DNA from: Pseudomonadota bacterium
GTDB taxonomy: Bacteria; Myxococcota_A; UBA9160; UBA4427
Reading direction: 5' to 3'
DNA: 64,000 bases
Assembly: GCA_027295775.1 (NCBI GenBank)
Contig: JAPUKG010000007.1
Span: forward strand, 276 to 64,275
Every line of letters begins with the position of its first letter. Position 1 is the first letter of the stretch. This document shows positions 33,392 through 50,444 of the stretch, piece by piece. The notes under the pieces were generated by a model. It was not told where the DNA came from, did not search any database, and was given only the letters and a program-made list of their open reading frames with translations. The translations under genes were made by a program, and so were the position numbers.

Positions 33392-35992
33392 CTACAGCGT
33401 GAAGCGCCGCACCTCGTCCCGGAGCGCCTCGGACTGCTCCTGCAGGTCGTTCTTCGCCTCCTTCATGGTGGCCACCGACTGCTCGTTGGCGCTGGTGCGC
33501 TCGGACACCTGGTCGAGGAATCCCTTGAGCTCCCGGTAGGAAGCGGATTGAGCCTCGAGGCTGTCGTTGATCTGGAGCGTCGCGTCACGCACCCCCTCGA
33601 TGCTCTCGCGGATGCGCGCGCCCCCGCGCGCCTGCTCCTGGGTGGTTCCGCGGAGCTGCTGGGCCACCTCGCGCATGGCCTCCGACGAGAGGTACACCAC
33701 CTCGTTGCCGCGGTCCTGCTCGGCGGCGGCCCACTGGATCGCCTCGACGCCCGCGTTCACGCTCTCCATCAGGCCCACTACGTGGACCGCGGCCTTCGTC
33801 TGCTCGCGGACGGCCTGGAGGATCTCGTGCATGCGGGTGCCGCTCTCCCGACTCGCGCGGGTGATCTCCTCCAGCGAGGCGCCGGCCTCCCTAGAGAGCT
33901 GCACCCCGGATGCAACGCTGCGCGAGCCGACCTCGATCGCGCCCACCGCGTTCTCGCTCTCCTCCTGCAGCGAGCGGATCAGCCCGCCGATCTCCTTGGT
34001 GCTGGCAAGAACCCGGTCCGCCAGCTCCTTGATCTCGTTCGCCACCACCGAGAACGCCCGCCCGTGCTCGCCCGCCTGGGCCGCGATGATCGCGGCGTTC
34101 AGCGCCAGCAGGCTTGTCTCGTCGGCCACGTCGTCGATCACGTCGAGGATCGCGCCGATCTCCACGGCCCGGGTACCGAGCACCCGGATCACTCGCTCGG
34201 CGGTGTCGGTGGCCTCGCGGATGGATTGCATGCCTTCGATGGTCTGGCGCACACGGGCCTGGCCGGTCTCGGCGTTCACGACCATGCGCTCGGAGAGGGC
34301 CGCGGTCTCCTCCGCGGTATTGTCCACCTGGCGCATGGCGCTGGCCATCTGCTCCATGCTCGACGACGTCTCCGTCGCCGCCGCCGAGAGCGCCTCCGAG
34401 TTGGCGACCACCTCTTTCACGCTGCGCACCATCTCCTCGATCGATGTCGAGACCTCGTCGACCCGGGAGGACAGCACGCCCGCGGTGTCGTTCAGCTCCT
34501 CGCCCGCCGCCCCCATCTCCAGGATCGAGCTGCTCGACTCCTCGACCAGGCTGCCCAGCTCCCGCGCCGACGCAGCGATGCCCGCGACCTGATCGTTGAT
34601 TCTCTCCAGGAGCCGCGCCGCCTGCTCGACGCCCCGGCCCTGCTCGGCCGCGCCGCGCGCCACGTTCTCGGAGGCCGATTCGATGCCGACCGTGTTTCGC
34701 TCCACCTGATCCGCGGCCTCGGCCACCCGCCCGACGGTCTCGCGCAACGCGGTCACCATGCTCTCGAACGACCGCGCCAGCTCGCCGAGCTCGTCCTCGG
34801 ACTCGAAGACGCGGCCCGGGCGGAGGTCCCCAGCGGCCATCCGCTGCACCTTCTCCTGCAGCTCCCGCGTGGCGGAGCCGACATCCACGGCCAGCACCCG
34901 CGAGAGTCCGAAGGAGATGGCCGCGGACACGGCGAGCATGATCAGGAAGACCACCTCGAGACTGCGCGTCTCTCCCGTGACCTCACTCCAAGGGGTGACA
35001 GCCACGACAACGGAGGTGCCGTCCCACAGCGGGCGCCAGGCGAAGCTATTGGGCGAATCGAAGCCCAGGCTGTTCCCACCCTGCCGGTTGGCGGCGCCGT
35101 CGGCGCTGGTGATCTGGGCCAGCTCGGACGGGTAGAGCAGCTCCGACGGCCCCGCGACCACGCGACCCTCGGCGACGTCCACCCACAGGAGGTCCGCGGC
35201 GATGCCGAGCCGCCGCGCCTGCGCCGACGCGGCCGACAGGGCGTCGGGGCCGCCCGCCTCGAGGGTCGGGGCGACCTCCTCCAGATAGCGGGCATGCGAA
35301 AGGGTGGCGTTGGCCTCGAGCCGCCGGCTCGAGGTGGCGAAGGCCAGGAACATCGCGAACGTGACTGTCACGAACGTTACGCCCGTCACGGAGACAAAGA
35401 GCTTGCTGCGCAGGGAGACCGGATGCACCAATCGAGCGCGGATTTCGGGGCCGTCGAGCCGGCTCGCCAGGGTGCGCAGTAGCTCCCCCAGATGCGACTT
35501 GAAGACGAAGTACATGAAGATCGACGTGACGAAGCCGCCGCTGGCCGCGGCCAGGCTCATCACCGCCCAGGGAAGGGCTTGGAAGGAGTCGAAGCGAAGC
35601 CACATGGCGGACGCCACCAGCACGCCGCCGAGACTCCACCAGACGATCCCCGAGAAGAACATCCGCAGCGGAAAACGGGCCAGTGCTTCGAACGCACAGC
35701 GCAGGGTCTCGTCGGCTCCCTTCCCCTGTTCCTCGTCCTTCAGGTAGGCCAGGATCGGAGCCAGGAAGCGGTGGTTCACCGTCATCGTGATCGAGAAGAG
35801 GATCACGAACAGACCGGCGACGATCTCGCCGAATCCGCGCCACAGCGCCGTTGGCAGCTGCAGCAGCATCAACAGATACGCGCTGATCAGCACGATGGTG
35901 GCGACGGAGATGACCGCCGACATCCTCATCACCCGGAGGTGAAATTCGCGCGCGCGCGGCAGCGCCCCGTTCGTTCCCGCGTCCGCGTTCAT
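33392..35992 (-). CDS. Methyl-accepting chemotaxis protein (6 predicted TM, HAMP, long signalling domain), paralog 1
   Basis: 866 aa. HAMP (ATRELQEKVQRMAAGDL...DELGELARSFESMVTALR). Signalling hairpin ...DETSLLALNAAIIAAQAGEHGRAFSVVANEIKELADR. ATGA overlap with the upstream cheY stop. Confidence 0.92.
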   Translation of the reverse strand: MNADAGTNGALPRAREFHLRVMRMSAVISVATIVLISAYLLMLLQLPTALWRGFGEIVAGLFVILFSITMTVNHRFLAPILAYLKDEEQGKGADETLRCAFEALARFPLRMFFSGIVWWSLGGVLVASAMWLRFDSFQALPWAVMSLAAASGGFVTSIFMYFVFKSHLGELLRTLASRLDGPEIRARLVHPVSLRSKLFVSVTGVTFVTVTFAMFLAFATSSRRLEANATLSHARYLEEVAPTLEAGGPDALSAASAQARRLGIAADLLWVDVAEGRVVAGPSELLYPSELAQITSADGAANRQGGNSLGFDSPNSFAWRPLWDGTSVVVAVTPWSEVTGETRSLEVVFLIMLAVSAAISFGLSRVLAVDVGSATRELQEKVQRMAAGDLRPGRVFESEDELGELARSFESMVTALRETVGRVAEAADQVERNTVGIESASENVARGAAEQGRGVEQAARLLERINDQVAGIAASARELGSLVEESSSSILEMGAAGEELNDTAGVLSSRVDEVSTSIEEMVRSVKEVVANSEALSAAATETSSSMEQMASAMRQVDNTAEETAALSERMVVNAETGQARVRQTIEGMQSIREATDTAERVIRVLGTRAVEIGAILDVIDDVADETSLLALNAAIIAAQAGEHGRAFSVVANEIKELADRVLASTKEIGGLIRSLQEESENAVGAIEVGSRSVASGVQLSREAGASLEEITRASRESGTRMHEILQAVREQTKAAVHVVGLMESVNAGVEAIQWAAAEQDRGNEVVYLSSEAMREVAQQLRGTTQEQARGGARIRESIEGVRDATLQINDSLEAQSASYRELKGFLDQVSERTSANEQSVATMKEAKNDLQEQSEALRDEVRRFTL

Positions 35993-36366: not shown

Positions 36367-36390
36367 TGCACTCCTCGACCGGCCCAGTCG

Positions 36391-37206
36391 CTACTTCGTC
36401 AGAAGATCGATGAAGCCCTGGATGGTGTTCAACTTGCGTTTGGACTGCGAATGCAGCCGGGCCGCGAAGATCGACGTCGCGGCGTGACCCGCCAGCAGTG
36501 TGAAGAGCTCGTAATCCAGCGCCGTGAAGCCGTCCTTCTGCTGGAGCAGGCTGTGGATGGCGATGGCACCCACCGGCCGCTCCTGGACCCGCAGGGGAAT
36601 CGACACCAGGGGCCCCTCCTCCGGTGCGCGCGCCCCAGCCGCCGGCTCCGCCACAGCCACCTCGCCATCCTGGACGGCCAGGCCGAGAGCCCCGCTTCCG
36701 ATCTCGATGCGCGGGAACTGCGACACCGGCGCGCCCTCCGAGGCAACTGGCTCGAGAATCCCGGAGCGCTCGTCGACGACGTACACGCAGAAGACCTCGG
36801 CGCCGATCAGGTTGATGACGATCTCGATGATGACCTTCAGCACCTCACTCGGATCGAGGGTGGAGTGGAGCTGGTAGCTGGCAACGTACAGGTTCGCGAG
36901 GTTGTTGTTCTCTTCCTCGATCTCTACGTACCGGCCGGCAAACTGACCGTTCTCCTCCTCCACCGCCTGCAACCGCTCGCGGATGTCCCGGTTCTCGACC
37001 TCGAGCGATTCGATCTTGCCGAGGAGCTCATTCCGCAGCTTCTCCCACTCTTCGGGATCGCGCGCCGCGTCCGTCTGCCGCTGCTCGATGTTCAGCAGGC
37101 GGACGCGAAGCTGCTCGTTCTCCTGGAGCAGATCCTTGGTGAACTCGGCGCCCCGTTTGAAGATCGAGAGCACGGCTTCTCCGCGTTCGTAGTTCTTCAC
37201 GCTCAT
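36391..37206 (-). CDS. Coiled-coil + GAF domain protein
   Basis: Trimmed from the 443-aa track ORF to MSVKNYERGEAVLSIFKRG.... About 110 aa of heptad-rich sequence (LRVRLLNIEQRQ...EEENNNLANLY), then a GAF-like fold (LKVIIEIVINLIGAEVFCVYVVDE...PLRVQERPVGAIAIHSLL). ATGA overlap with the cheB stop. Confidence 0.75.
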   Translation of the reverse strand: MSVKNYERGEAVLSIFKRGAEFTKDLLQENEQLRVRLLNIEQRQTDAARDPEEWEKLRNELLGKIESLEVENRDIRERLQAVEEENGQFAGRYVEIEEENNNLANLYVASYQLHSTLDPSEVLKVIIEIVINLIGAEVFCVYVVDERSGILEPVASEGAPVSQFPRIEIGSGALGLAVQDGEVAVAEPAAGARAPEEGPLVSIPLRVQERPVGAIAIHSLLQQKDGFTALDYELFTLLAGHAATSIFAARLHSQSKRKLNTIQGFIDLLTK

Positions 37207-38285
37207 GACATTTCCTTCCGAATCGGGGCCCCCGAGACACCGGACAGGCCAGACTGGATCGCTGCTGGGATCTCGCTGAGGGCGAGTACCCGATCCACCG
37301 CACCCGTCCGTATCGCCTGCTGGGGCATGCCGAAGATCACTGCGCTCTCCTCCGACTCCGCGATCACCGAGCCCCCGGCCTCCTTCACCCGGGTCACGCC
37401 CCGGCGTCCGTCGTCGCCCATTCCCGTGAGGACGATCGCCAGGAGGTCGCTGCCGAAGTGCTTCGCCGCGGTCTCGAACAGGCGGTCCGCGGACGGGGTG
37501 TACTTGTCCGACGGACCGTTGGGCGTCACCCGAGTCACGATCTCGCTGCCGCGGCTCTCGAGCTCCAGGTGATGGCCGCCGGGCGCGACCAGCACGGAGC
37601 CCGGTTCGGGCCGCTCGCCGCCCTCGGCCTCGTTGGCACTCAGCGGGGTCAGCCGGTCGAGTCGCTCCGCGAAGCCGCGGGTGAAGCCCCGGGGCATGTG
37701 CTGGGCCACCAGAAACGCGCACGGCGGCGGCGCGGCGAAGGCGCCCAGGATCTGCATCAACGCCGCCGGTCCGCCGGTCGACGAGCCGATCACCACCATC
37801 GATGGGATCGGAGACACGGCCCCCCCGAGCCGGGCCAGCACCGGGGGCACCGATCGGATCCGATCGCGCACCTTGTCGATGCGCAGCTCGCGGATGGCGT
37901 GGACCTTGCGGATCAGCTCCTGCTGGATGCTCTCCAGCTCTGGCGTGGCGTGCGGCATGGGCTTGGCGAGGAAGTCCACCGCCCCCAGGTCGAGGGCCTT
38001 GAACACGTCCTCTTCTCCGGCCCGGCCGCTGATCACCATCACGGGGGTCGGCCGCTTGCTCATCACCAGCCGCAGGAACGTGAACCCGTCCATCCGCGGC
38101 ATCTCCAGGTCCAGCGTCACGAGATCGGGCTCGAGCTCCAGGGTCTTGCGCAGGGCCTCCTCGCCATCGCGCGCGACGCCGACCACGTCGACCAGCGGCG
38201 ACGTGCGCAGCATGCGCATGATCGTCTGCCGGCTGAAAGCCGAGTCGTCGATCACCAGGACGCGGATCAGCTCCCGGGGCTTCAT
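37203..38285 (-). CDS. cheB: Protein-glutamate methylesterase/glutaminase CheB (REC + esterase)
   Basis: 360 aa. REC (VLVIDDS...LVTLDLEMPRMDG...FLAKP). Esterase triad context (GSSTGGP, AQHMPRGFT, GMGDDG). ATGA overlap with the cheR stop. Confidence 0.93.
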   Translation of the reverse strand: MKPRELIRVLVIDDSAFSRQTIMRMLRTSPLVDVVGVARDGEEALRKTLELEPDLVTLDLEMPRMDGFTFLRLVMSKRPTPVMVISGRAGEEDVFKALDLGAVDFLAKPMPHATPELESIQQELIRKVHAIRELRIDKVRDRIRSVPPVLARLGGAVSPIPSMVVIGSSTGGPAALMQILGAFAAPPPCAFLVAQHMPRGFTRGFAERLDRLTPLSANEAEGGERPEPGSVLVAPGGHHLELESRGSEIVTRVTPNGPSDKYTPSADRLFETAAKHFGSDLLAIVLTGMGDDGRRGVTRVKEAGGSVIAESEESAVIFGMPQQAIRTGAVDRVLALSEIPAAIQSGLSGVSGAPIRKEMS

Positions 38286-39211
38286 CGCTCGCCCCCGTCG
38301 GCGGTGGCCAGCGCGGTTTCGGCCGCCTGGTGCCAGGGGTCGCGCACCTCCTCGCCGGGGATCGGTCGCCGGTAGACCAGTTCGTTGGTCAGGTGGCGCA
38401 GCTCGAACGCTGTGGAGAGATTGATCAGCGACTCCGAGTGGCCCAGGAGCAGATGTCCGCCGGGCCGCAACTTGTCGTGGAACGTGTCAATCACCCGCTT
38501 CTTGATCTCGGCGTCGAAGTAGATGATCACGTTTCGGCACAGGATCACGTCCATGGAGCCGAGTAGCGCGAGCTTTCCGTCATCGAGCAGGTTCAGGTGG
38601 ATGAAGTCCACGTGCTTCTTGACTTCGTCACAGATCCGGAAGAGGCCGTCCTTCTCGATGAAGTACTTGTCCCGCAAGTGCGACGGCGTCTCCCGGAACG
38701 ATGCTTCCCGGTAGACGCCGCGCCGCGCCTTCTGGAGCATCGCGCGGGAGATGTCGGACGCGTACACGCGGATGTCGCGGCCCGGCTCGAGTCCAGCCTC
38801 CAGGGCCATCATGACCGTGGTGTAGGGCTCCTCCCCGCTCGAGCAGCCCGCAGACCAGATGCTGACGCTGGCGGCGGGGTTGTGGGTGCGCCGCTGTAGC
38901 AGGTGCTCCGGGAGGATCTCGTCGATCAGCGCCCGGAGCTGTTTGTACTCGCGGAAGAAGTACGTCTCGTTGGTGGTGAGGTCGTCGATCACCCGCGACA
39001 TCTCGCTGTTGTCGCTCCCGGCGCGCAGCTGGTAGTGGTACGCGGCGAAGCTGCCGAGCTCGAGCGCTTCGACCCGCCGAGCCAGGCGCTTCTCCAGCAG
39101 GAACCGCGATTCCGCCGCGAAATGGAGCCCGCAGTGCTCCCGCAACATCTGGCAGAACATGCGGAACTCCGCATCGCTCATGCTGAGCTTCGCCGCTGCG
39201 ACCGTACCCAC
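38282..39211 (-). CDS. cheR: Chemotaxis protein methyltransferase CheR
   Basis: 309 aa. N-terminal helical domain plus SAM-binding site IWSAGCSSGEEPYT and ILCRNVIIYFD. Confidence 0.93.
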   Translation of the reverse strand: MGTVAAAKLSMSDAEFRMFCQMLREHCGLHFAAESRFLLEKRLARRVEALELGSFAAYHYQLRAGSDNSEMSRVIDDLTTNETYFFREYKQLRALIDEILPEHLLQRRTHNPAASVSIWSAGCSSGEEPYTTVMMALEAGLEPGRDIRVYASDISRAMLQKARRGVYREASFRETPSHLRDKYFIEKDGLFRICDEVKKHVDFIHLNLLDDGKLALLGSMDVILCRNVIIYFDAEIKKRVIDTFHDKLRPGGHLLLGHSESLINLSTAFELRHLTNELVYRRPIPGEEVRDPWHQAAETALATADGGER

Positions 39212-39217
39212 CGCGGA

Positions 39218-41317
39218 CTACCCCTCCAGGCTCCTGAGTGCGCGGAGGATCGCGTCGCGAACGAAGTCGTCTTGCTCGGTCTCGAGTCGTCGCAGGATCG
39301 GGGGAACGGCGGCGACCATGCGTCGCTCCGCCAGGGTCTGGACCACGTCCGCGCGAACAACCCAGCTTGGATGCGCGATGAGACCGAGGAGCACCTCCGC
39401 CGTGCCCGCGTCGCCGTGGGCGCCCACGCAGCGCACGCCAGCCTGGACGAGTTCGGGCTCGGCGCGGTCGAGCAGTCGGCACGCGGTCCGGGCGGCGGCG
39501 TGGCCGCCCACCTGGGCCAGCGCCTCGACTGCGGCCAGGGCCACTTCACCGCAATCCTCGAGGGCGCGCTCGATCAGGGCGAAGGCCTCGGTCGCTGCGC
39601 TGTCGCCGGCCGAACGGGCGCACTGCGCCCCGATGGCGCGAACCGCGGCTGCCCGCACCCTGGGATCCTCGTCTCCGATCAGCCGGGGCAGGTCCTCGAG
39701 CACCGCCGCGTTCCGGGAGCTGCCGAGGGCGGTGGCCGCGGCGATGCGCACCGCCGCCGACTCGTCGGCGAGAGCAAGCCGAAGCGGCTCGGAGGCGGAG
39801 CCCGGCTCCAGGTGGGCCAGGGCTTCGACCGCGGCGCGGCGCACCCCAGCGCTCGGATCCTTGAGCAGGAACACCACCAGCTTCGCGTCCTCGCCGCGCC
39901 CAATGCGACCGAGGACGGTGGCAATCGAGATGCGCACCGCCTCATTGGCGCCGTCGAGCCCGGCTCGCAGCAGCTCGATGGCCTGGGCCGCGAGCCCTCC
40001 GCCCGCTGTCCCTTCCGGCCCGGCCAGCGCCACGATCGCTTCCGTGATCGCCGCCAGCTCGTCCTCGGCCTCGAAGTCCTCCTCCTCGGCGGCGGCCTGC
40101 AGTCTCCGCACCAGCTTGGGAAGCACGCGTCCGCAACGGCGGCGCCCGAGCGCGCGGGCCGCCGCCGAGCGCTGCGCGGAGTCGCTCCCGTCGAGGGCGC
40201 TCTCCAACCGCACCTCACCCGCTTCGCCGCCGGTTCGCGCCAGCAGGCCGCAGGCGTCCCGGCGCAGGTCGGGATCGAGATCGGGCCAGGCCGCGTCGAG
40301 CGCGGATTCCGCCCGGTCGCCCATCGACTCGAGGGTGGCGTGCGCGAGCTCGGTGACCGCTTCGTCCCGGCCGGCGCGAAGGATCGGCACGACACACTCG
40401 GGCGCGCCAACCACGCCCAAGAACTGCACCAGCACGAGCCGGGTGGCCAGGTCGGCCTCCTCGACGCGCACTCCGGCGTCCTCGATCAGGACCGGGTCGC
40501 GCCCGGCTTCCCGGATCTCGTCGGCCAGCCGGTCTGCGCCCGCGTCGGAGTCAGCCAGCCGACGCAGCAGGGCCGTCATGGCCGCTTCGCGGACCGCGCG
40601 GGAATTGCTGGCCAGCGCCTTCTTCAGCCTCTCGAGGCCGCGCGCGTCCAGGGGATCCGCCAGCAGCACGAGCGCGGCCGGCTGCAGGGTGGGATCGTCC
40701 AGGGCCGGCCCCAGGTCCGCCGCCGTCACGGCCGTCTCGAGGCGGGCCAGGGCGCTCAACGCGGAGAAACGGACCAGCGTGTCCTCGCCGCCTCGGACGG
40801 CGCACTGCTGGAGCGCCTCGGACACCTCGGGGCCCCCGAGCACGCCCAGCGCGTCAGCGGCGGCGCTGCGCACGTTCGGGTCGGCGTCGTCGAGCATGCC
40901 GAGCATGGGCTGCCGCGACGACTCGTCTCCGATCCCGGCGATGGCATCGATCATCAGCTTGCGCACGTCCACATCGTCGCTGTCGAGGGCTCCGATCAGG
41001 AAGGGCACCACCCGGGAGCCACAACCCACGAGCGCCTCCACGGCGGCATTGCGCCGCCCCGCGTTGTCGCCGTCGCCCAGCGCCACGATCAGGGCCTCGG
41101 TGACACGGTCCGACTCGGCGCAGTCGATCAGCCTCTCCACGGCGGCCTTGCGCACGCGCCAGCCCGGGTCCCCGAGGCTCTTTACGAGTTTCGGGATCGC
41201 CTCGGCGGACGGGAGCGTCAGCAGCCGCTCCACCGCCAGGCGCCGCACCTCCTCGTCGGCGCTCGCGAGATCCTCGAGGATGCTCCGGCGTTCGCGATCG
41301 CCGAGCTCGGGGTTCAT
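39218..41317 (-). CDS. HEAT-repeat (PBS-lyase-type) protein
   Basis: 699 aa made almost wholly of repeats of the form L..AL.D.D..VR..AA.ALG (e.g. LGDPGWRVRKAAVERL, LDDADPNVRSAAADALG, DEDPRVRAAAVRAIG). ATGA overlap with the upstream gene. Confidence 0.85.
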   Translation of the reverse strand: MNPELGDRERRSILEDLASADEEVRRLAVERLLTLPSAEAIPKLVKSLGDPGWRVRKAAVERLIDCAESDRVTEALIVALGDGDNAGRRNAAVEALVGCGSRVVPFLIGALDSDDVDVRKLMIDAIAGIGDESSRQPMLGMLDDADPNVRSAAADALGVLGGPEVSEALQQCAVRGGEDTLVRFSALSALARLETAVTAADLGPALDDPTLQPAALVLLADPLDARGLERLKKALASNSRAVREAAMTALLRRLADSDAGADRLADEIREAGRDPVLIEDAGVRVEEADLATRLVLVQFLGVVGAPECVVPILRAGRDEAVTELAHATLESMGDRAESALDAAWPDLDPDLRRDACGLLARTGGEAGEVRLESALDGSDSAQRSAAARALGRRRCGRVLPKLVRRLQAAAEEEDFEAEDELAAITEAIVALAGPEGTAGGGLAAQAIELLRAGLDGANEAVRISIATVLGRIGRGEDAKLVVFLLKDPSAGVRRAAVEALAHLEPGSASEPLRLALADESAAVRIAAATALGSSRNAAVLEDLPRLIGDEDPRVRAAAVRAIGAQCARSAGDSAATEAFALIERALEDCGEVALAAVEALAQVGGHAAARTACRLLDRAEPELVQAGVRCVGAHGDAGTAEVLLGLIAHPSWVVRADVVQTLAERRMVAAVPPILRRLETEQDDFVRDAILRALRSLEG

Positions 41318-42357: not shown

Positions 42358-42405
42358 CGTCCACTCCTTCTCATGCACTTCGCTCCCGCTCTTCCAGGGA
42401 GCCGG

Positions 42406-44979
42406 CTAGATCTGGAACTTCGCCACATCCTCACGCAGTGTCTCCGCCTGGCGCACTAGGTCGTGCATGGCTCCGCCCATGCGCTGACTCGCCTCCTCGT
42501 TGGAGCGGGTGCGCTCGGATACCTGCTCCAGGAACTCCGATACCTGACTGCAGGCGTTGGACTGCTCCTGGAGCGAGCCGTTGATCTGCTCCACCGCCTC
42601 GCGCACGCCCTCGACGCTCTCGCGAATGCGAACGAATCCCCGGGCCTGCTCCTCGGTGGTGCGCCGAACCTGTCCGGCCACCTCCCGCATGACGAGCGAG
42701 GAGCGGTGGACCACCTCGTTGCCCCGGTGCTGCTCGGCACCCGCCGCGGTGATCTGCTCGACTCCGTGGCGGACGCGCTCCATCAGCTCCACCACGTGCG
42801 AGGCGGCCTTGGTCTGCTCGCGCACCGCGGCCCCGATCTCCGCGATGCGGGTCCCGCTCTCCCGGGACGAAGCCGTGATCTCCTCGAGAGAGACGCCCGC
42901 TTCGGCCGACAGCTCCACGCCGCTGGCCACGCTGGCCGAGCCGGCCTCCACAGCGCCTTCGGCGTTGGCGGCCTCTTCCTGCACGGAGCGGATCAGCCCG
43001 CCGATCTCCTTCGTGCTCGCGAGCACCCTGTCCGCCAGCTCCTTGATCTCCTCGGCCACGACCGAGAAGGCGCGGCCCTGTTCTCCCGCCTGGGCCGCGA
43101 TGATCGCGGCGTTCAGCGCGAGCAGGTTGGTCTCGTCGGCGACGTCATCGATCACGTCCAGGATCGCGCCGATCTCCTGGGTTCGCGCACCCAGTCCGCG
43201 GATCACCTGCTCGGCGCTATCGGTCGCGTCGCGGATCGCCTCCATGCCGCTGATCGTCTGGCGGACCTTGGTCTGTCCGTTCTCGGCACTGGCGACCACC
43301 GCGCTGGAGAGCTCCGCGGTCTTCTCCGCGGTGGTGTCCACCACGCGCATCGCGCTCGCCATCTCCTCCATGCTGGAGGACGTCTCCGCCGCAGCGTCCT
43401 CGAGCTCCTCGCTGCTGGTCGCCACCTGCTTCACGCTTTGGACCATCTGATCGATAGAGCTCGATACCTCGTCCACCTTGGAGGAGAGCACCGAGGCCGT
43501 CTCGTTCAGCTCGTCGCCCGCAGCACCGAGCTCGAGGATGGAGCTGCTCGACTCCTCCACCGAGACGTTGAGGACCTGGGCCGATCCGGCCACCTCGTTC
43601 ACCTGGTGGCTGATCTCGAGCATGAGTTCGTTGGCCTGCTGGATGCGGCGCACCTGGTCGGCGCTCGCGGCCGCCACGCTCTCGGAGGCGCCGGCGATCT
43701 CGCCGGCGGTGGCCTCGACCCGGTCCGCGGCCTCGACTACCCGGCCCACCGTGGAGCGCAGGGACTGACCCATGCGCTCGAAGGAGCGCCCCAGCTCGCC
43801 CAGCTCGTCGTCGGACTCGACGCTGAGTCCCCCGCGCAGGTCGCCCAGCGCCATCCGCTCGGCCTCCCGTCTCAGGCCCAGGACCGGTCCGCTGATGTCG
43901 GCGGCCAGCAGCCACCCCACGCCGAGCAGGAGCCCGGTGACGGTCACCAGCACGATCGCCAGCACGGACTGGAGCCCGGCGAGCGGCTCGCGCAGCTTGC
44001 CGCGATCGACCGAGGCCACCAGCACTCGGTCGTCCGCGAGGGTCTGCCAGGCGAGTACCTGGCGGGTGCCGGTTCCGGCGTAGGTGCCGGTCTTGGCCCC
44101 GGCCTCGACGAGGCCCAGCAGGGCCTGGAAGGATGCGTGGTCCCCATCTGCCCGGTCCGGGTCGAGCACAAGGAACTCCGTCGGATACGGCAGGAGCTCG
44201 TCGGCCAGGCCCAGCCGCCTGCGCGCGCTACCCAGGTCGCCGGCCTCGACGTGGGGCGCCAGGACCGCGAGCGTCCGCGCTTGCCAGGCCGTGGCCAGCT
44301 CGTCGAGGGCGGCGCCAGCGCGCGAGTAGGAGAGGCTCATCGTGAACAGGATTGCCGCGAAGCCGGTCCCGGCGACCACGTACTGGACCTTGCGCGAGAG
44401 CGCCATGGGAACGATCAAGGCGCCGCGCTCCTCCGGGTCGGGCAGCGCGGCGGTCAGCGCCTCGCGGATCGGCGCGAGCGCGCGCTTCGTCAGGAAGTAC
44501 ATGAAGGCGGACGAGAGGATTCCGCCGGTCACGCCCGCGGCGGCCACCACCATGAACCGCTCGCTGCTGAGCCAGGCCGGGAACCCACCGAGCCAACCCA
44601 GCAGCGGAAGCGTCAGGCCGGCGAAGACCCAGATCGTGAGCATGATGCGCGTCACCGTCCGAGGCACGGAGATCGCGCTGGCGAAGGCCTTCTGCTGCGC
44701 CTCTCGCGAGAGCTCGTGGTCGCGCTGCTGGGCACAGGCGTCGAGGTAGGCGTAGAGCGGCACCAGCACGCGGCGGCGAATGGGTTCGAAGCCTCCCGCG
44801 GCCAGCGCGGCGTAGCCCAGGCCGGCGAAGGAGAATGCCTTCCACTCCTGGGGGGACACCTCGAGGAGCGACGCGATGTACCAGAGCATCACCCCGAAGA
44901 CCGGGATCGACACCGCGGTATCGATCATCAGCACGCGCAGGCGCAGCTCGCGCGACGTCGGTAGCACTCGCCAGCTCAC
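42406..44979 (-). CDS. Methyl-accepting chemotaxis protein (6 predicted TM, HAMP, long signalling domain), paralog 2
   Basis: 857 aa. Same architecture as 33392-35992, with long identical blocks (EIGAILDVIDDVADET.LLALNAAIIAAQAGE.GRAFSVVA.EIKELADRVLASTKEIGGLIRS). The GTG start overlaps the cheW stop (GTGA). Confidence 0.92.
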   Translation of the reverse strand: MSWRVLPTSRELRLRVLMIDTAVSIPVFGVMLWYIASLLEVSPQEWKAFSFAGLGYAALAAGGFEPIRRRVLVPLYAYLDACAQQRDHELSREAQQKAFASAISVPRTVTRIMLTIWVFAGLTLPLLGWLGGFPAWLSSERFMVVAAAGVTGGILSSAFMYFLTKRALAPIREALTAALPDPEERGALIVPMALSRKVQYVVAGTGFAAILFTMSLSYSRAGAALDELATAWQARTLAVLAPHVEAGDLGSARRRLGLADELLPYPTEFLVLDPDRADGDHASFQALLGLVEAGAKTGTYAGTGTRQVLAWQTLADDRVLVASVDRGKLREPLAGLQSVLAIVLVTVTGLLLGVGWLLAADISGPVLGLRREAERMALGDLRGGLSVESDDELGELGRSFERMGQSLRSTVGRVVEAADRVEATAGEIAGASESVAAASADQVRRIQQANELMLEISHQVNEVAGSAQVLNVSVEESSSSILELGAAGDELNETASVLSSKVDEVSSSIDQMVQSVKQVATSSEELEDAAAETSSSMEEMASAMRVVDTTAEKTAELSSAVVASAENGQTKVRQTISGMEAIRDATDSAEQVIRGLGARTQEIGAILDVIDDVADETNLLALNAAIIAAQAGEQGRAFSVVAEEIKELADRVLASTKEIGGLIRSVQEEAANAEGAVEAGSASVASGVELSAEAGVSLEEITASSRESGTRIAEIGAAVREQTKAASHVVELMERVRHGVEQITAAGAEQHRGNEVVHRSSLVMREVAGQVRRTTEEQARGFVRIRESVEGVREAVEQINGSLQEQSNACSQVSEFLEQVSERTRSNEEASQRMGGAMHDLVRQAETLREDVAKFQI

Positions 44980-45476
44980 TGTGACTCCTCCCGCTGCGGC
45001 AGCGCAGAGCGGTAGACGCTCTCGATGATGTGGTCCAGAGAGAGCACCAGCACGGGCGACTCGCCGGGCCGGCGCACCACTGCGCGGACCGCGTCGTAGC
45101 CGGCCTGGATGACGAGCGCGGGCGGATCTTCGAGCGCGCCAGCTTCCACGGAGAGAACGTCCACCGCGGCCTCTACGGCGAGTCCCAGAACGAGCCCGTC
45201 GGTCTCGAGGACGACCACGCGCGTGCGCGCGTCCACCTCTGCCGGCTGCCCCGTGAGCGCTCGGCTCAGATCCAGGACCGGGACCAGCTGACCGCGCAGG
45301 TCGATCACGCCCTCGATGAGCTCGGGCGCCTTGGGCATGGGGGTCACCTCTTGCCAGCGCACGATCTCCCGGACCTGGGCCACGTCGAGGGCCACCATGC
45401 GCCCGCCGACCTCGAAGCAGGCGAGGTTGATCTGCCCCCCCTCGAGAAGGCTCGCGCTGTTACCGGTCGTCAACAA
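44976..45476 (-). CDS. cheW: CheW-like coupling protein (copy 2 in operon order)
   Basis: 166 aa. FEVGGRMVALDVAQVREIV...APELIEGVIDLRGQLVPVLDLS is the CheW fold pattern. TTG start overlaps the upstream cheW. Confidence 0.9.
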   Translation of the reverse strand: MLTTGNSASLLEGGQINLACFEVGGRMVALDVAQVREIVRWQEVTPMPKAPELIEGVIDLRGQLVPVLDLSRALTGQPAEVDARTRVVVLETDGLVLGLAVEAAVDVLSVEAGALEDPPALVIQAGYDAVRAVVRRPGESPVLVLSLDHIIESVYRSALPQREESQ

Positions 45477-45975
45477 GCTTCAGTACCCGATCCAGATCGA
45501 TGATGGAAACGAACTCGTCTCCGTGCAGACACAGCTCGGCCACGCTGATGGTCTCTCCCGGCGGCGCTGGCCGAATGAACTCCTCGGTGACGCGCAGGAC
45601 TTCCCGGACGGCGTCCACCAGCACGCCGGCCACCCGACCGTCCTCGCCGTGGAGGACGATGATGCGGCTCGAGCGGGTGGGTTCGGGCTGCGCAAGGCCG
45701 AGCCGCATGCGCAGGTCCACCACCTGCACGATCTCGCCGCGCAGCGCAATCACGCCGAGCACCGCCTTCGGCACTCGCGGCACCGGTGTGATGGTGCGGA
45801 TGCGGACGATCTCGCGAACCCGTTCCACGGGAACCGCGTAGGACGAGTCGTTGAGCTGGAAGCTCAGGAGCTCGCGCAGGCGCTCCGGTTCTTCCGGGGC
45901 GGCGCGTCCCCGGGCGGCGGCGCGCGCCAGCTCGACCCAGTCTCCAGATGCGGCAGCGGCGTCGGTGGCACTCAT
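45460..45975 (-). CDS. cheW: CheW-like coupling protein (copy 1 in operon order)
   Basis: 171 aa. LLSFQLNDSSYAVPVERVREIVR...PKAVLGVIALRGEIVQVVDLR. Confidence 0.9.
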   Translation of the reverse strand: MSATDAAAASGDWVELARAAARGRAAPEEPERLRELLSFQLNDSSYAVPVERVREIVRIRTITPVPRVPKAVLGVIALRGEIVQVVDLRMRLGLAQPEPTRSSRIIVLHGEDGRVAGVLVDAVREVLRVTEEFIRPAPPGETISVAELCLHGDEFVSIIDLDRVLKLVDDR

Positions 45976-46006
45976 CCGGCCTGCCCCGGGCGAATCGTTC
46001 CCCGCG

Positions 46007-48058
46007 TCATGCGGCGTCCCTGCGACGCATGGCGTCTTCCACGATGCTGGAGACGTCGATCACCAGGACCGCGCCCTGGTCGCCGATCTCGGTGGCGCCG
46101 GCGATCCCGCGCACCTGCTGGATCGGGCCCTGGATCGACTTCATGATCGTGTCCTGCTGACCCTCGAGGGAGTCCACCAACAGGCCCAGACGCAGCTCGC
46201 CGAGTCCCAGTACCACCACGTGCCGCTTCTCGTCTTCGGACGTGCTGCGCAGGTTGAACTCATCCGCCAGGCGCCGGAGCGGCAGCGGCTCGCCGCGCAG
46301 GTTCATCATCTCGCGGCCCTCGCTGCGCTGCACCTCCTCGGGCTGAAGCAGCAGGGTCTCGAGCACCGAGTTCAACGGAATGGCGTAGCGCTGGTCGCCG
46401 ACGGTGACGATCAGTGCCTGGATGATGGCCAGGGTGAGGGGCAGGGTCATCACCACGGTGGTCCCCTTGCCCAGGACCGAGTCGATGTCGACGATGCCGT
46501 CCAGGGCCGTCAGGTTGGCCCGCACCACGTCCATGCCGACGCCGCGCCCGCTCGTCTCGGTCACCTCATCGCGGGTGGATAGGCCGGGCAGGAAGACGAG
46601 GTCGAGGGTCTCCTTCGGCGTGAGCACTGCGTCGGGGGCGACCAGCCCCGCGGCCTCCGCGCGGCGGCGCACCTCCGCCGGATCGATCCCCCGCCCGTCG
46701 TCGGCCACCTCGATCACCACGTGGTTGCCGCGCTGGCTCGCCTCGATGAGGATCCTGCCCTGGGCCGGCTTGCCCGCCATCACGCGCTCTTCCTCGGACT
46801 CGATGGCGTGGTCGAAGGCGTTGCGCACCACGTGCATGAGCGGATCGATCAGCTCTTCCACGATCAGCTTGTCGAGCTCCGTGTCCGCGCCCTTGTATTC
46901 GAGGCTCACGTCCTTCCCGAGATCCCGGCGCAAGCGGCGGACCACCCGGGAGATCTTCTCGAAGACATGGCGCAGAGGCACCATGCGCACGTCCAGGACG
47001 CTGTTCTGCAGGTCCTTGAGCTTGCGCTCGATCACCTTGTGCACCTTCGCGAGCTCGCCCCCGACGCGGGAGGTCTCTGGATCCCGGCACAGCCGGTCTG
47101 CGATTCGCGAGAGCGAGCCGCGCTGGATGACCAGCTCGCCCACCAGGTTCATCAGCTCGTCGAGCTTGCGGATGTCGACCCGCACCGTGTCGCTGATCGA
47201 CTTCAGCGACTCGATGTCGGCGCTCTCCCCGAGCCCAGTCGCCAGCTCGGGCGCCGGTGCCGACGCCATCTCGATGGACGCGGCGCGGTTGGACGCCTCG
47301 CGCACCGCACGGATGCTCGTGTCCGCGAACTCCAGCCGCGCCGCCAGCTGCTCCGCATCCACCTCCGTGGCGACGAGCAGCGAAAAGCGGATCTGGGACT
47401 CGGGCGTCTCGCCCGGCGACGGCAGGGTGGAGACGACCTCGCCCACCTCGCGGACCGCCGCGGACAGCTCGGCCAGGCCCTCCTCGAAGGTGATGATCTC
47501 GAACATCGTGTTGATGAGCGAGATGTGACGCCCGCGCCGCAGGTTCTCGCGCAGGCGGTGCTCCTCGTACTCCGTCAGGGCGCGCATGAGTGCGGGGTCC
47601 ACGTCCAGGTCCACGAGCTCGTCCTGGACCGCGGCGGTCTCCTCGATTGCTTCCGCGATCCGGGTCACCAGGTCGGCTACGGCGAGCGAGTCCTCCTCGG
47701 CCTTTCCCTCGTCGCCGAGCCGCTGGAGCAGCTTGCCGAACAGGGCGACCGCCTCGTCCAGCAGGCCCACCGCGGGCGCGTCGGCCGCGACGCGCCCCAG
47801 GCGCAGGCCGTCGAGCACGTCTTCCAGGTGGTGGGCCAGCTCGCCGATCCCGTCGAGCCCGAACATGCCCGCCAGGCCCTTCAGCGAGTGAGCGGAGCGG
47901 AAGATGCGGTTCACCAGATCGGGATCGATCTCGCCCACCGCCCGCTGGTCGTGCAGATCCGAGAGATCCCCGCTCATGCGGTCGAGGAGCTCTTCCGCCT
48001 CCGAGACGAATTCGCGGTGCGCCTTGCTCTTCACGCTTCGCGAACGCCGCGCGGCCAC
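46007..48058 (-). CDS. cheA: Chemotaxis histidine kinase CheA
   Basis: 683 aa. HPt (IFRSAHSLKGLAGMFGL), dimerisation region, HATPase (VRNAFDHAIE...DDGRGID...SGRGVGMDVV), C-terminal CheW-like P5. Confidence 0.95.
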   Translation of the reverse strand: MAARRSRSVKSKAHREFVSEAEELLDRMSGDLSDLHDQRAVGEIDPDLVNRIFRSAHSLKGLAGMFGLDGIGELAHHLEDVLDGLRLGRVAADAPAVGLLDEAVALFGKLLQRLGDEGKAEEDSLAVADLVTRIAEAIEETAAVQDELVDLDVDPALMRALTEYEEHRLRENLRRGRHISLINTMFEIITFEEGLAELSAAVREVGEVVSTLPSPGETPESQIRFSLLVATEVDAEQLAARLEFADTSIRAVREASNRAASIEMASAPAPELATGLGESADIESLKSISDTVRVDIRKLDELMNLVGELVIQRGSLSRIADRLCRDPETSRVGGELAKVHKVIERKLKDLQNSVLDVRMVPLRHVFEKISRVVRRLRRDLGKDVSLEYKGADTELDKLIVEELIDPLMHVVRNAFDHAIESEEERVMAGKPAQGRILIEASQRGNHVVIEVADDGRGIDPAEVRRRAEAAGLVAPDAVLTPKETLDLVFLPGLSTRDEVTETSGRGVGMDVVRANLTALDGIVDIDSVLGKGTTVVMTLPLTLAIIQALIVTVGDQRYAIPLNSVLETLLLQPEEVQRSEGREMMNLRGEPLPLRRLADEFNLRSTSEDEKRHVVVLGLGELRLGLLVDSLEGQQDTIMKSIQGPIQQVRGIAGATEIGDQGAVLVIDVSSIVEDAMRRRDAA

Positions 48059-48064
48059 GATGGG

Positions 48065-48466
48065 CTACCCCCTGGGCCGTCGGTTGGCGGAGTCCGCGCT
48101 CTGGAGCAGATCCCGAGCCACGGTTCGCAGCTCTTCGGGCTCGAACGGCTTGACCAGATACGCGTCCGCACCGAGCTCCAGCCCCTTGTCGCGATCGCGC
48201 TCCGAGCCCTCGGTCGAGACGATGATCAGTGGGATCGAGCGGTAGGCCGGGTTCTGCTTCACGAACGACACCAGCTCGAGCCCGTTGATGTCGGGCATGT
48301 TGATGTCGGTCACGATCAGGTCGGCCGACTCTCTCGGCAAGATGCGCAGCGCCTCGAACCCGCTGTCCACCTGGGTGATCTTGACCGGAAGGTCGATCGC
48401 CTCGAGCGTCGATGCGAGCAGGGATCGCATGGTCGCCGAATCTTCCACGATCAGGATGCGCTGCAC
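48065..48466 (-). CDS. cheY: CheY-like single-domain response regulator
   Basis: 133 aa. ILIVEDS, LIVTDINMP, IIVSTEG, YLVKP. GTG start preceded by GGAGGAGG. Confidence 0.9.
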   Translation of the reverse strand: MQRILIVEDSATMRSLLASTLEAIDLPVKITQVDSGFEALRILPRESADLIVTDINMPDINGLELVSFVKQNPAYRSIPLIIVSTEGSERDRDKGLELGADAYLVKPFEPEELRTVARDLLQSADSANRRPRG

Positions 48467-48525
48467 GGGCCTCCTCCGGACCGCATCTCAATGCGCTGCA
48501 CGGGCCTCCCCGGGACCGGCTCGAG
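48456..48525. repeat. Tandem duplication (2 x 35 nt) of the cheY translation-initiation region
   Basis: Unit 1 is 48456-48490 and unit 2 is 48491-48525. The first 19 nt are identical (atgcgctgcacgggcctcc), and 28/35 nt are identical overall by eye. Confidence 0.85.
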
Positions 48526-48584
48526 AGCGACTCAAGGCGGCCTCTCCCGCACCGGGTTCGCGGTCGCCACCCGACCGCTCCCTC

Positions 48585-50444
48585 CTATCGGTCGTCCGGG
48601 GCGTTTCTTGAGGCAGGCGAAGGACTTCCGTCCTCCCGGCGCGGGTCCGCCGCCGGTTCGTGGAGGGGCGACTCTGCGCCGTCTGCGGGGACCCTCTCGA
48701 CCCCCTCCAGCCGCTCGAGGGCGGCCCGGTCCAGGGCCAGTCCGGCGTGGTGGAGGACCACCTCGAGGGCACTGGTGTCGCCCACGAGCCGTGAGCTCGG
48801 GAGGTTGTCCCCATAGAGGAGCGCCACGATCTGGCCCGAGCTCTCGATGGGCGCCAGGTAGGCCTCGCTCGGCGAGGCATCCCCCAGCATCAAACCGAGC
48901 TCCCGGTCGCCGTCGTCGATCGGGGCGGAGCGGAGCGAGGTCCGGGTCGCGAGCACGCGCCGGAACCACGAGCAGCGCTCGGCCCGCATTCTCACGCCGC
49001 GCAGTCCGGCGTCGTCGGGTCCCCCCGCCCGGTTCAGGCCGTGCTGGGCCATGCCCATCACCAGGTCGTCGCGGACACCGAACATCGCCACCCGCGAGAA
49101 GCGTTCCGCGGCGAAGCGGATGACCAGGGGCAGGACCTCGCCGCGCGACGCTGCATCGCGGAGATCCGTCATCGCCTCGTTCAGCCTGCGCATGATCTCC
49201 GGAGGGATGGCGTCGGAGCGCGCACCCGCGGCAGGGCCCGCCTCCGGCACCGGCGGCACCACGGCATCCACCACGGCGGCGCGCAGCCGGGCCGCGACTC
49301 TCTCGACCTGTTCCGCCCGCGCCGGGTCGGAGAGGTCGTGGGCGCTCGGGCGTTCCACGATGCCGTCCGCCGGCGCGACGGGCTCGGGCTGCCCGGCGTC
49401 CTCCTCGCAGAGCCACAGCACGCGCATTCGCGCGGACTGGGTCTTCAGGCGTCTGGCGAAGTCGCGGGCGTCCAGAATTCCACTCAGGGGATCACCCGGC
49501 ACATCCGGCGACAGCAGAACCAGGGGCGTCTCGGCGCGGACCAGGTACTGGCGAATGCGCGCCAGCCCGAGCTCGGAGCGCTGGAAGATGTGGGTGCGGG
49601 GAAAGTCGTCGGCCAGCGCGCGCTTCGTCCACTCGAGCCCGGTGAGGTCGGAGTCGATGGCGACGACGGGCGGTCGGGGTGCGCCCTCCTTCGCCTGCTC
49701 CACCCGGTGGGTCGCTGCCGACGCCACCCGATCGATCTGCTCGGCCCGCACGTCGGCGGGGGAGAGGGGCGCCGCGACCTCCCCGACTGACTCCGGAACG
49801 AGCGGCGCCTTCGTCTCCTCGGCGGACTCCGCGTCAAGAGCGGGCTCTGCGGGTTCGCTTTCGCCGTCGAACTCGAGATCCGCACCGAACATCACGTCCG
49901 CCGAGAGCTCGTCCTCGGGAGCGGGCGCGTCTCCGCGGTCCAAGCGCTCCGCCTCCACTGCCTCGTCGTTGAGGCGCGAGCCCTCCATAGCCAGGTACTG
50001 GGCGTTGATACCCGTCTCCAGGAACAGGGGCGGGTCGTCGGGCTCGGGCTCCTCGCGAACGTCGAAGCTGAACTCGCCGATCTTCCAGCGGAACATCGAC
50101 ACCACGGCGGACTCCACCGCCTCCCGGCGCAGGGAGTCGATCCGCTCGCTGGGAATCGAGACCGTGTCCGCGAGCACGCGCTCGATCGAGACGCCCGACT
50201 CGCGACTGGTCCGGGCGGCCTCGTCGAACTCGGCCCCGGACACGATCTCGCCGCCGACGAGCACGCCGCGCAGGTCGTCGGGGCCGCCCTTGAGCACGGC
50301 GCCGCGCACCAGGCCTTCGACGAACAGGATGCGACCCTCCCCCGCCTCGCTGCGAATGGCGAGCACTCCCGACTTCTGAGAGAGGCTGATGATCTGGAGG
50401 ATGTCCCCGAGTCCCAAATCCTCGAGGCTTCCGATCAGGCTCAT
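48585..50444 (-). CDS. DUF4388 (PatA-N-like) + receiver-like + GAF-like multidomain protein
   Basis: Trimmed to MSLIGSLEDLGLGDILQIISLSQKSGVLAIRSEAGEGRILFVEGLVRGA (DUF4388 pattern). Acidic linker. REC-like VVAIDSD...LVLLSPDVPGDP. C-terminal GAF-like region (RFSRVAMFGVRDD...IVALLYGDN). First gene of the che-like cluster. Confidence 0.75.
   Translation of the reverse strand: MSLIGSLEDLGLGDILQIISLSQKSGVLAIRSEAGEGRILFVEGLVRGAVLKGGPDDLRGVLVGGEIVSGAEFDEAARTSRESGVSIERVLADTVSIPSERIDSLRREAVESAVVSMFRWKIGEFSFDVREEPEPDDPPLFLETGINAQYLAMEGSRLNDEAVEAERLDRGDAPAPEDELSADVMFGADLEFDGESEPAEPALDAESAEETKAPLVPESVGEVAAPLSPADVRAEQIDRVASAATHRVEQAKEGAPRPPVVAIDSDLTGLEWTKRALADDFPRTHIFQRSELGLARIRQYLVRAETPLVLLSPDVPGDPLSGILDARDFARRLKTQSARMRVLWLCEEDAGQPEPVAPADGIVERPSAHDLSDPARAEQVERVAARLRAAVVDAVVPPVPEAGPAAGARSDAIPPEIMRRLNEAMTDLRDAASRGEVLPLVIRFAAERFSRVAMFGVRDDLVMGMAQHGLNRAGGPDDAGLRGVRMRAERCSWFRRVLATRTSLRSAPIDDGDRELGLMLGDASPSEAYLAPIESSGQIVALLYGDNLPSSRLVGDTSALEVVLHHAGLALDRAALERLEGVERVPADGAESPLHEPAADPRREDGSPSPASRNAPDDR

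Follow-up and report, generated by a model that had tools for sequence, protein, structure and literature searches.

The question raised by 13 genes at 33392-50444 of the window, a 64-kb stretch (G+C about 70%) of contig JAPUKG010000007.1 from an uncultured member of the Myxococcota, is what a complete chemosensory core acts upon when the genes interleaved with it encode scaffold-like proteins. An earlier interpretation made from the letters alone (the sequence-only reading) had taken the interleaved genes for parts of a signalling system and could match their combination to no described pathway. Gene content, gene order and sequence comparison place the cluster as the uncultured-Myxococcota version of the delta-proteobacterial chemosensory cluster catalogued as 'group beta', and one of its accessory proteins, described before as a zinc-ribbon pseudo-receiver, has a third, C-terminal domain that the earlier account omitted and that is homologous to RomX of Myxococcus xanthus. 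On the best reading of the locus, to which a probability of about 0.5 is assigned, chemosensory signals would feed an MglA-type switch of polarity and surface motility, a reading of which we infer every binding step and the cellular output.

All 13 open reading frames (ORFs) of the array lie on the minus strand (ORF list of the window). In order from the first gene of the cluster, with their Pfam matches (REC, receiver domain; MCP, methyl-accepting chemotaxis protein; Hpt, histidine phosphotransfer domain), they are:

48585-50444, minus strand: PATAN protein, first cluster gene, PATAN(DUF4388)-linker-REC-like-GAF-like; 619 aa; DUF4388/PatA_N 7e-22
48065-48466, minus strand: CheY1, canonical single-domain receiver; 133 aa; Response_reg 3e-27
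46007-48058, minus strand: CheA histidine kinase; 683 aa; P1 Hpt, dimerisation, HATPase, P5 CheW-like
45460-45975, minus strand: CheW (a); 171 aa; CheW 2e-32
44976-45476, minus strand: CheW (b); 166 aa; CheW 5e-33
42406-44979, minus strand: MCP2, membrane receptor; 857 aa; HAMP and MCPsignal
41314-42357, minus strand: ZnR-REC-RomX-like protein, MJ0042-type zinc ribbon (ZnR), degenerate receiver, Pro-Ala linker and RomX-like three-helix bundle; 347 aa; Zn_ribbon_4, weak Response_reg
39218-41317, minus strand: HEAT-repeat (PBS-lyase-type) scaffold protein; 699 aa; HEAT_2 2e-62, 6 stretches
38282-39211, minus strand: CheR methyltransferase; 309 aa; CheR 1e-55, CheR_N
37203-38285, minus strand: CheB methylesterase with receiver; 360 aa; CheB_methylest 1e-59 and Response_reg
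36391-37206, minus strand: CC-GAF, coiled-coil and GAF protein; 271 aa; GAF_3 1e-13, GAF_2, GAF
35989-36366, minus strand: CheY2, canonical single-domain receiver; 125 aa; Response_reg 1e-28
33392-35992, minus strand: MCP1, second membrane receptor; 866 aa; HAMP and MCPsignal

Coordinates, strand and Pfam matches all agree with the 13 co-directional genes and domains named by the sequence-only reading, which had also placed the five 4-nt ATGA/GTGA overlaps exactly right; its count of nine tight junctions in twelve (an overlap or a gap of ≤8 nt) becomes eight in twelve, a number that depends on the start codons chosen. At the four looser junctions the genes are separated by 118, 31 (cheA to cheW), 48 and 24 nt; the cheW pair overlaps by 17 nt, and CheW (b) overlaps MCP2 by 4 nt. 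A scan for sigma-70 promoters and terminators gave matches at chance level, and neither the region upstream of the first gene nor the larger intergenic gaps contained a sigma-54-like motif.

The affiliation of the cluster follows from Geobacterales proteins that were reached with a divergent representative (P0265) as query. On a Geomonas contig (L084) and in a Desulfuromonadales metagenome-assembled genome (MAG; L089) the genes run der / PATAN-REC, CheY, CheA, AAA ATPase, CheW, REC, CheW in the first half and ZnR-REC, HEAT, CheR, CheB, GAF, CheY / (infA) leuS, lptE, holA in the second, a layout that equals the published gene order of che cluster 5 of Geobacter sulfurreducens (GSU2225 EngA, GSU2224 response regulator, GSU2223 CheY, GSU2222 CheA or EsnC, GSU2221 ATPase, GSU2220 CheW or EsnB; PMC8242959, PMC5585712). 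GSU2217 is the putative ZnR-REC-RomX-like gene of that cluster and GSU2216 its putative HEAT gene. Cluster 5 was described as 'group beta', with no mcp genes and of unknown function, and the group was found conserved in delta-proteobacteria including M. xanthus, Stigmatella, Anaeromyxobacter and Plesiocystis (Tran et al., 2008; PMC2577667). Position-specific tblastn identities between the window proteins and the Geobacterales clusters span 30-65% overall: CheY1 is 62-65% identical to the first Geobacterales CheY and CheY2 59-62% to the last, CC-GAF shares 52-56% with the GAF gene in the corresponding place, and the Geobacterales orthologues of CheB, CheR and CheA give 50-53%, 49-52% and 46%, those of PATAN, HEAT and ZnR-REC 33-40%, 30-39% and 30-32%.

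The window cluster and group beta thus have in common the core order CheY-CheA-CheW-CheW-...-CheR-CheB-...-CheY with a non-hybrid CheA, a PATAN gene upstream, ZnR-REC and HEAT genes between cheW and cheR, a GAF gene between cheB and the last cheY, and a downstream flank of lptE-holA(-rpsT), which in L084 and L089 comes after leuS. They differ in that the window has two MCPs within the cluster, whereas group beta is defined as having none; in that the window lacks the AAA ATPase (GSU2221) that L084 and L089 encode after CheA and the additional receiver that they have between their two CheWs; in that the receiver of the PATAN protein is degenerate in the window and Pfam-recognised in Geobacterales; and in the upstream flank, which is nusB and a gene like the N-terminal domain of peptidase M17 (M17_N-like) in the window and era-der in Geobacterales. 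The window cluster is a receptor-containing member of a catalogued class and not a new kind of system, and the statement that its combination of genes was unmatched is overturned by the Geobacterales loci, which have the same accessory set in the same order. Of the characterised orthologous cluster that the sequence-only reading had named as the finding that would count against it, one part exists, namely a cluster with the same accessory set and with mutant phenotypes, although the accessory proteins and the direct output are uncharacterised. A literature search on the exact accessory set found nothing beyond Tran et al. (2008) and the Esn and oxt8 papers.

Within the Myxococcota the same arrangement is widespread. 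When one genome per species was scanned, relatives of the ZnR-REC-RomX-like protein turned up in 290 genomes; the best 80 are all MAGs, mostly labelled Myxococcota or Deltaproteobacteria. The 13-gene order is identical on two long contigs (L001 and L003), as are the flanks, ribH-nusB-(M17_N-like) on one side and lptE-holA-rpsT on the other. When the 13 window proteins were compared with all loci by tblastn, the order PATAN, CheY1, CheA, CheW, CheW, MCP, ZnR-REC, HEAT, CheR, CheB, CC-GAF, CheY2 recurred at 43-86% identity in dozens of species-level genomes. Of 41 species-level MAG loci of Myxococcota in which the region is covered completely, PATAN is present in 38, HEAT and CheA in 35 each, CheY2 in 34 and CC-GAF in 31; the internal MCP is found in 28 and the trailing one (MCP1) in 10, and most of the Myxococcota MAG loci have one MCP or more. 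Since the accessory genes are kept in 31-38 of these loci, they are integral to the system and not insertions, as had been proposed, and the second receptor is its variable part. CheY2, 73-86% identical among relatives, is the most conserved gene of the cluster (CheY1, 60-82%).

Fifteen MAGs, labelled Spirochaetales or Spirochaetaceae, carry the Myxococcota-type cluster at 45-56% identity (L020, L026, L029, L034, L040, L048, L050, L055, L058, L060, L064, L065, L070, L072, L080); one isolate name contains 'MYXO', and the labels are probably wrong.

The domain that gives the cluster its candidate output lies in the ZnR-REC-RomX-like protein, whose ORF is also open from a GTG at 42378. The AlphaFold model (mean predicted local distance difference test score, pLDDT, 82) has three folded domains: a zinc ribbon at 8-44, a receiver fold at 77-193 and, beyond a disordered Pro/Ala linker, a three-helix bundle at 276-350 whose helices are predicted with pLDDT >90. 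In searches against the PDB the bundle matched M. xanthus RomX (8zna) at E=4e-14 with the family profile and at E=1.8e-8 with the single window sequence, residues 271-335 aligning to RomX 5-69 with about 45% identity over 65 residues; the zinc ribbon matched that of GltJ at 2e-6 (family profile), and the GltJ zinc ribbon binds MglB (PMC11135422). RomX is a small partner of the response regulator RomR, with which it forms a complex that binds MglA-GTP; its helix 1 binds MglA in the GTP form only, R11 and R14 being needed for binding and D19 for exchange (bioRxiv 10.1101/2024.02.20.581209). L75, R76 and W87 of helix 3 bind the RomR receiver. A 2026 paper makes the case for RomRX as an MglA-GTP effector rather than a guanine nucleotide exchange factor (PMC13408092). 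RomX R11, R14 and D19 align to R277, R280 and D285 (347-aa numbering) of the window protein, and the corresponding R284, R287 and D292 (354-aa numbering) are invariant in 30 family members. In a wider alignment the R11 and D19 equivalents are kept in all sequences, including three Geobacterales orthologues, and at the R14 position Geobacterales have Arg, while multi-repeat proteins have either Arg or Lys. Binding to an MglA-family polarity GTPase in its GTP form is predicted for the bundle.

The receiver of the same protein is weakly matched by Response_reg (30.7 bits, cut-off 30.2), and its fold was confirmed. In the aligned family D126, the equivalent of the phospho-acceptor D57, is invariant; Ala81 takes the place of the first acidic residue, Gly or Ala that of the Thr/Ser, and the position of the Lys, in 'YLExP', is variable (all in 354-aa numbering), so that the domain falls outside the canonical receivers. 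More than 1000 homologues of the protein are found, nearly all metagenomic, one of them 99% identical ('MAG: Proteobacteria bacterium'), and NCBIfam gives generic matches only for it and for the HEAT protein. AlphaFold models that combine a Zn finger, a REC domain and a RomX-like fold have been mentioned already, for example A0A2N6E6P0 (Desulfuromonas), without function or gene context (bioRxiv 10.1101/2024.02.20.581209).

A link between RomX-like domains and small GTPases is also found outside the cluster. When the 80-residue RomX-like domain was searched against 1.84 billion representatives, 1013 matches were returned, among them two proteins (P0251, 805 aa; P0309, 914 aa) in which an N-terminal small GTPase is followed by three or more RomX-like repeats; in P0251 the N-terminal domain matches M. 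xanthus MglA at E=1e-57 and residues 601-672 match RomX. Such natural fusions, in the manner of a Rosetta stone, argue that the RomX-like domain family works on MglA-type GTPases. Both fusion proteins come from metagenome contigs. Three to five RomX-like repeats in tandem, mostly together with a zinc-ribbon motif, are seen in seven other proteins (P0241-P0247, about 600-990 aa); P0241 combines an N-terminal zinc-ribbon motif, a receiver and five repeats, and P0265 and its relatives have two.

A second line of evidence comes from two loci in which the system is reduced. In L042 (7516-11080) and L062 (7979-11056) only PATAN, CheY1 and ZnR/REC/RomX-like genes stand between nusB and lptE; the Che core, HEAT, CheR and CheB, GAF and CheY2 are missing, the loci are clean, and the context is unchanged (glyA, nrdR, nusB ... 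lptE, holA, unknown membrane protein, second PATAN gene, phoH). That these three genes stay together without the Che core suggests that they form the output kernel of the system. In L025 (9250-9834) and L075 (9164-9953) fragments of CheY1 adjoin the C-terminal portion of an MCP, and CheA and both CheW are missing; these two loci look like internal deletions or MAG misassemblies and were not used as evidence.

The AlphaFold model of the PATAN protein (mean pLDDT 84) has four regions, a PATAN domain with a helical insertion (1-170), a disordered acidic linker, a REC-like alpha/beta domain (260-395) and a GAF-like domain (415-583), and its best Foldseek matches are a REC-GAF dual-sensor kinase and many GAF domains; model and matches bear out the REC-like/GAF-like assignment made from the letters. 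Pfam calls no REC domain in the window protein and does so in the Geobacterales orthologues; the window receiver is regarded as degenerate because Ser replaces Asp after beta3 ('LVLLSPD'), both in the sequence and in the consensus. In Synechocystis the PATAN domain serves as the output domain, binding PilC and the ATPase of pilus extension, PilB1, and a PATAN protein of M. xanthus is required for pilus-dependent motility (bioRxiv 10.1101/2021.06.11.447907). The HEAT protein has alphaRep/HEAT matches in the PDB; neither the PATAN nor the CC-GAF protein has a specific NCBIfam family or a useful PDB sequence match. The comparisons that the sequence-only reading had drawn, between the PATAN-CheY head of the operon and PatA-type regulators and between the HEAT protein and a CheY partner, are judged apt.

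In the core, CheY1 and CheY2 both retain the acidic pocket, the phospho-acceptor Asp and the Ser/Thr and Lys motifs, and CheA has a single Hpt and no fused receiver (Pfam). By hydropathy, MCP1 and MCP2 have several N-terminal hydrophobic segments. From the end of HAMP to the C-terminus they measure 448 and 449 aa, respectively, with the hairpin tip centred (at about residue 643 in MCP1, with arms of about 224 aa each), and judged by hairpin length alone both would belong to the 64-heptad (64H) class.

The proposed mechanism draws on what was observed: the genes present and how well they are kept, their orthology and domain folds, the homology to RomX and the conserved residues. The two 64H-length membrane receptors, the two CheW and CheA would form a sensing array, adapted by CheR and CheB, in which CheA would phosphorylate CheY1 and CheY2. 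The absence of flagellar, CheZ, CheC, CheD and output-enzyme genes noted before holds across the whole 64-kb window. Neither an enzyme nor a DNA-binding protein is encoded as an output, and the proposed targets of the CheYs are the co-encoded scaffold proteins, the protein-protein-interaction output already suspected being the most plausible. The key scaffold would be the ZnR-REC-RomX-like protein, which would behave as a RomR-RomX fusion whose RomX-like bundle binds MglA-GTP; the PATAN protein, judged by the PatA-type regulators of cyanobacteria, may dock on the type IV pilus motor or another polar machine, and the HEAT (cf. Cpc7 of the M. xanthus Che7 system) and CC-GAF proteins may be further CheY partners or signal-integrating scaffolds. 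Receptor signals would in sum set or reverse polarity for surface motility, and the system would be a functional analogue of Frz, acting on MglA/MglB/RomR-RomX but hard-wired in one operon. A need for such an input can be argued from the distribution of RomR: the RomR-encoding genomes of Geobacter, Pelobacter and Myxococcales also encode MglA, MglB and type IV pili and most are without Frz (PMC3441718), so that in most of these lineages a different chemosensory input to the polarity module would be needed.

Several points weigh against an input to MglA. By tblastn no mglA or mglB was found in the window, nor, in 83 related loci, up to 10 kb from the cluster; of the two query sequences, that of MglA was checked against the PDB sequence. 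The RomX residues that contact the RomR receiver, L75, R76 and W87, lie outside the HMMER alignment, which ends at RomX residue 69, and the window protein ends too early for an equivalent of W87, with an invariant Arg present in 'ELxRVA'. Orphan ZnR-REC-RomX-like genes occur between genes for a rhomboid protease and a sigma-70-family protein on one Nitrospirota-labelled and two cytochrome-rich contigs (L085 10001-11071, L086 10001-10978, L088 10001-10891), none of them near che genes; the bundle is small, and its partner need not always be MglA. The phenotypes of orthologues lie in the colonisation of electrodes, in biofilm or matrix and in the regulation of groEL rather than in motility polarity (PMC5585712, PMC8242959, PMC2577667, PMC9040617), and the partners with which EsnB and EsnC of Geobacter have been connected are a 40H receptor and a GGDEF regulator rather than MglA (PMC5585712). 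Che8 of M. xanthus (MXAN_4751-4759), a system with no function identified so far (PMC9040617), is by published gene lists the only M. xanthus cluster with the group-beta make-up; we infer from the published gene order that group beta and the window cluster correspond to it, in which case MXAN_4754 and MXAN_4755 would be the HEAT and ZnR-REC-RomX-like genes and a PATAN gene would lie upstream of cheY8b. The published phenotypes support the alternatives below, yet are compatible with a pilus or polarity defect.

The alternative that survives best, although unlikely, is control of biofilm, matrix or second messengers, in which CheA would phosphorylate unlinked regulators such as the GGDEF cyclase EsnD, the GAF-type proteins would sense or relay nucleotide messengers, and the HEAT, Zn-ribbon and PATAN proteins would merely assemble or localise the array. 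Mutants in esnB (GSU2220) and esnC (GSU2222) fail in electrode colonisation like the GGDEF esnD mutant (PMC5585712), a transposon insertion in GSU2224 gives biofilms that are thicker and tolerate oxygen (PMC8242959), knockouts of cluster 5 reportedly alter the expression of extracellular matrix (unpublished, as cited in PMC2577667), and two GAF-type domains are conserved in the cluster; no cyclase, phosphodiesterase or PilZ gene was found in the cluster or the 64-kb window, however, and neither the invariant MglA-contact residues, nor the MglA-RomX-like fusions, nor the persistence of PATAN-CheY-ZnR/REC/RomX-like where the Che core is missing, is explained. Second-messenger control and the polarity input are not exclusive, since pilus or polarity defects could cause colonisation or biofilm phenotypes.

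Regulation of developmental or stress genes in the manner of Che7 and Che8 is quite improbable. Here a phosphorylated CheY and the HEAT protein (as CheY7-Cpc7) and an orphan regulator with HrcA would tune chaperones or differentiation, as is suggested by the Che7 core, whose order is the same (CheY, CheA, CheW, MCP, HEAT, CheR, CheB), by the CheY7-Cpc7 partnership as it is cited in PMC9040617 and PMC6194562, by the pull-down of CheA8 and CheA7 with the orphan regulator MXAN_4468, deletions altering groESL transcription (PMC9040617), and by the retention of the HEAT gene in most loci (35/41). The system is conserved, however, in Geobacterales and uncultured Myxococcota without known fruiting development, the cluster has no Des7-like desaturase and no linked transcription-factor gene, and the RomX-like and PATAN modules are ignored. 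That the locus is an ordinary flagellar chemotaxis operon with extra scaffold genes, for which the full CheA/W/Y/R/B and MCP core would speak, is most improbable, since no flagellar gene, CheZ, CheC, CheD or CheV lies in the 64-kb window, the accessory set is conserved, and M. xanthus, whose genome carries the type, is a non-flagellated organism. The orthologous Geobacter clusters, likewise, lie away from flagellar genes (PMC2577667).

If the input to MglA is the correct reading, it may be extended, tentatively, to the whole group: group beta/Che8 could be an ancestral dedicated input to MglA, widespread in Myxococcota and Geobacterales, in which the kernel of PATAN, CheY and RomR/RomX-like fusion would couple CheY phosphorylation directly to MglA-GTP being recruited to a pole or released there, and thereby to the polarity of pili or gliding. 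Catalogues have listed the cluster type since 2008, and it occurs in two models under intensive study, G. sulfurreducens and M. xanthus, but neither the accessory proteins nor the direct output have been explained; what is new is the RomX-like domain in the ZnR-REC protein, which provides a concrete, testable hypothesis for the output of Che8/group beta. Were that hypothesis true, chemosensory signalling would be tied to the small-GTPase polarity switch in Frz-less lineages and the electrode-colonisation phenotypes of Geobacter could be reread as polarity or pilus phenotypes; under the ancestral extension, the orphan Che8 and the Geobacter Esn system would have one mechanism in common, with the 64H receptors as one cognate input. 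The receptor-containing version in the window suggests the class of receptor that feeds such systems.

The remaining genes of the window are housekeeping genes, including relA/spoT, lipopolysaccharide and lipid A genes, bamA, lolCDE, lysS, prfB, lnt and phoH, together with holA, lptE, nusB, ribH, nrdR, glyA and gltX. Between nusB and the PATAN gene, a 208-aa protein (50575-51201, minus strand) consists of the N-terminal domain of Peptidase_M17 alone; this M17_N-like gene may belong to the transcription unit, because it has the same position in L001 and L003. Downstream of lptE-holA lie two genes (28416-29708 and 29570-31450, both minus strand), followed by phoH: one encodes a 626-aa multi-pass membrane protein with a tetratricopeptide-like middle part, a Cys-rich motif and no Pfam match, and the next, before phoH, a second DUF4388/PATAN protein with a C-terminal hydrophobic anchor. 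The trio of membrane protein, second PATAN and phoH is also found 3' of holA in L042, and weak PATAN matches occur there in many loci. The listed lpxK, lpxB and ribH ORFs (9632-11707, 12041-14608 and 51679-53526, all minus strand) are two to four times longer than their C-terminal Pfam domains, an excess that is probably over-extension at very high G+C (73-77% there) and not a set of real N-terminal extensions.

Among described systems other than group beta, M. xanthus Che8 resembles the window cluster in layout (CheY8b 4759, CheA8 4758, CheW8b 4757, CheW8a 4756, two unnamed genes, CheR8 4753, CheB8 4752, CheY8a 4751; no MCP; PMC3945109): the published order is collinear with that of the window, with a non-hybrid CheA, two CheW and two CheY, whereas Che8 lacks an MCP and apparently a GAF gene between CheB and CheY, and CheA8 has 862 aa against 683 aa in the window. 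Che7 (CheY7-CheA7-CheW7-Mcp7-Cpc7-CheR7-CheB7-Des7), which groups with Che8 in the phylogeny of Che proteins (PMC3945109), has a HEAT gene (cpc7) between receptor and cheR and a CheA of the same size (683 aa) and domain order; the window differs in having no desaturase, two CheW, two CheY, a membrane rather than a soluble receptor, and further genes of the PATAN, ZnR-REC-RomX-like and GAF kinds. Che5 and Che6 of M. xanthus are ruled out as matches by their hybrid CheAs, tetratricopeptide-repeat CheR and 40H receptors. Membership of the type IV pilus (Tfp) class (Pil-Chp, with a multi-Hpt ChpA and fused receiver in a pilGHIJ-chpA context) is ruled out by the single-Hpt, receiver-less CheA, and no pil genes were found in the 64-kb window. 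With Frz the cluster would have in common the proposed logic, a chemosensory system with two receiver outputs that acts on the MglA polarity module; the organisation is not homologous, there being no FrzE-type CheA-CheY fusion, FrzZ double receiver or cytoplasmic FrzCD-type receptor, and Frz membership is ruled out by the CheA architecture.

Two further comparisons concern the accessory proteins. In the window cluster, as with the PatA-type PATAN-REC regulators (PixG, PilG and PixE of the cyanobacterial Tax/Pil systems), the chemosensory operon opens with a PATAN protein and then a plain CheY, PATAN being a protein-interaction output domain; the window differs in a receiver without the phospho-acceptor Asp, an added GAF-like domain, a non-hybrid CheA and the lack of pil genes nearby. 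The ZnR-REC-RomX-like protein differs from RomR-RomX of M. xanthus in being a single polypeptide with an N-terminal zinc ribbon encoded inside a che operon, in a receiver without the conserved Thr/Ser, Lys and one acidic residue, and in a C-terminus that is RomX-like in place of the Glu-rich RomR-C pole-targeting domain; its succession of receiver, Pro-rich disordered linker and RomX module nevertheless has the make-up that would be expected if RomR and RomX had been fused.

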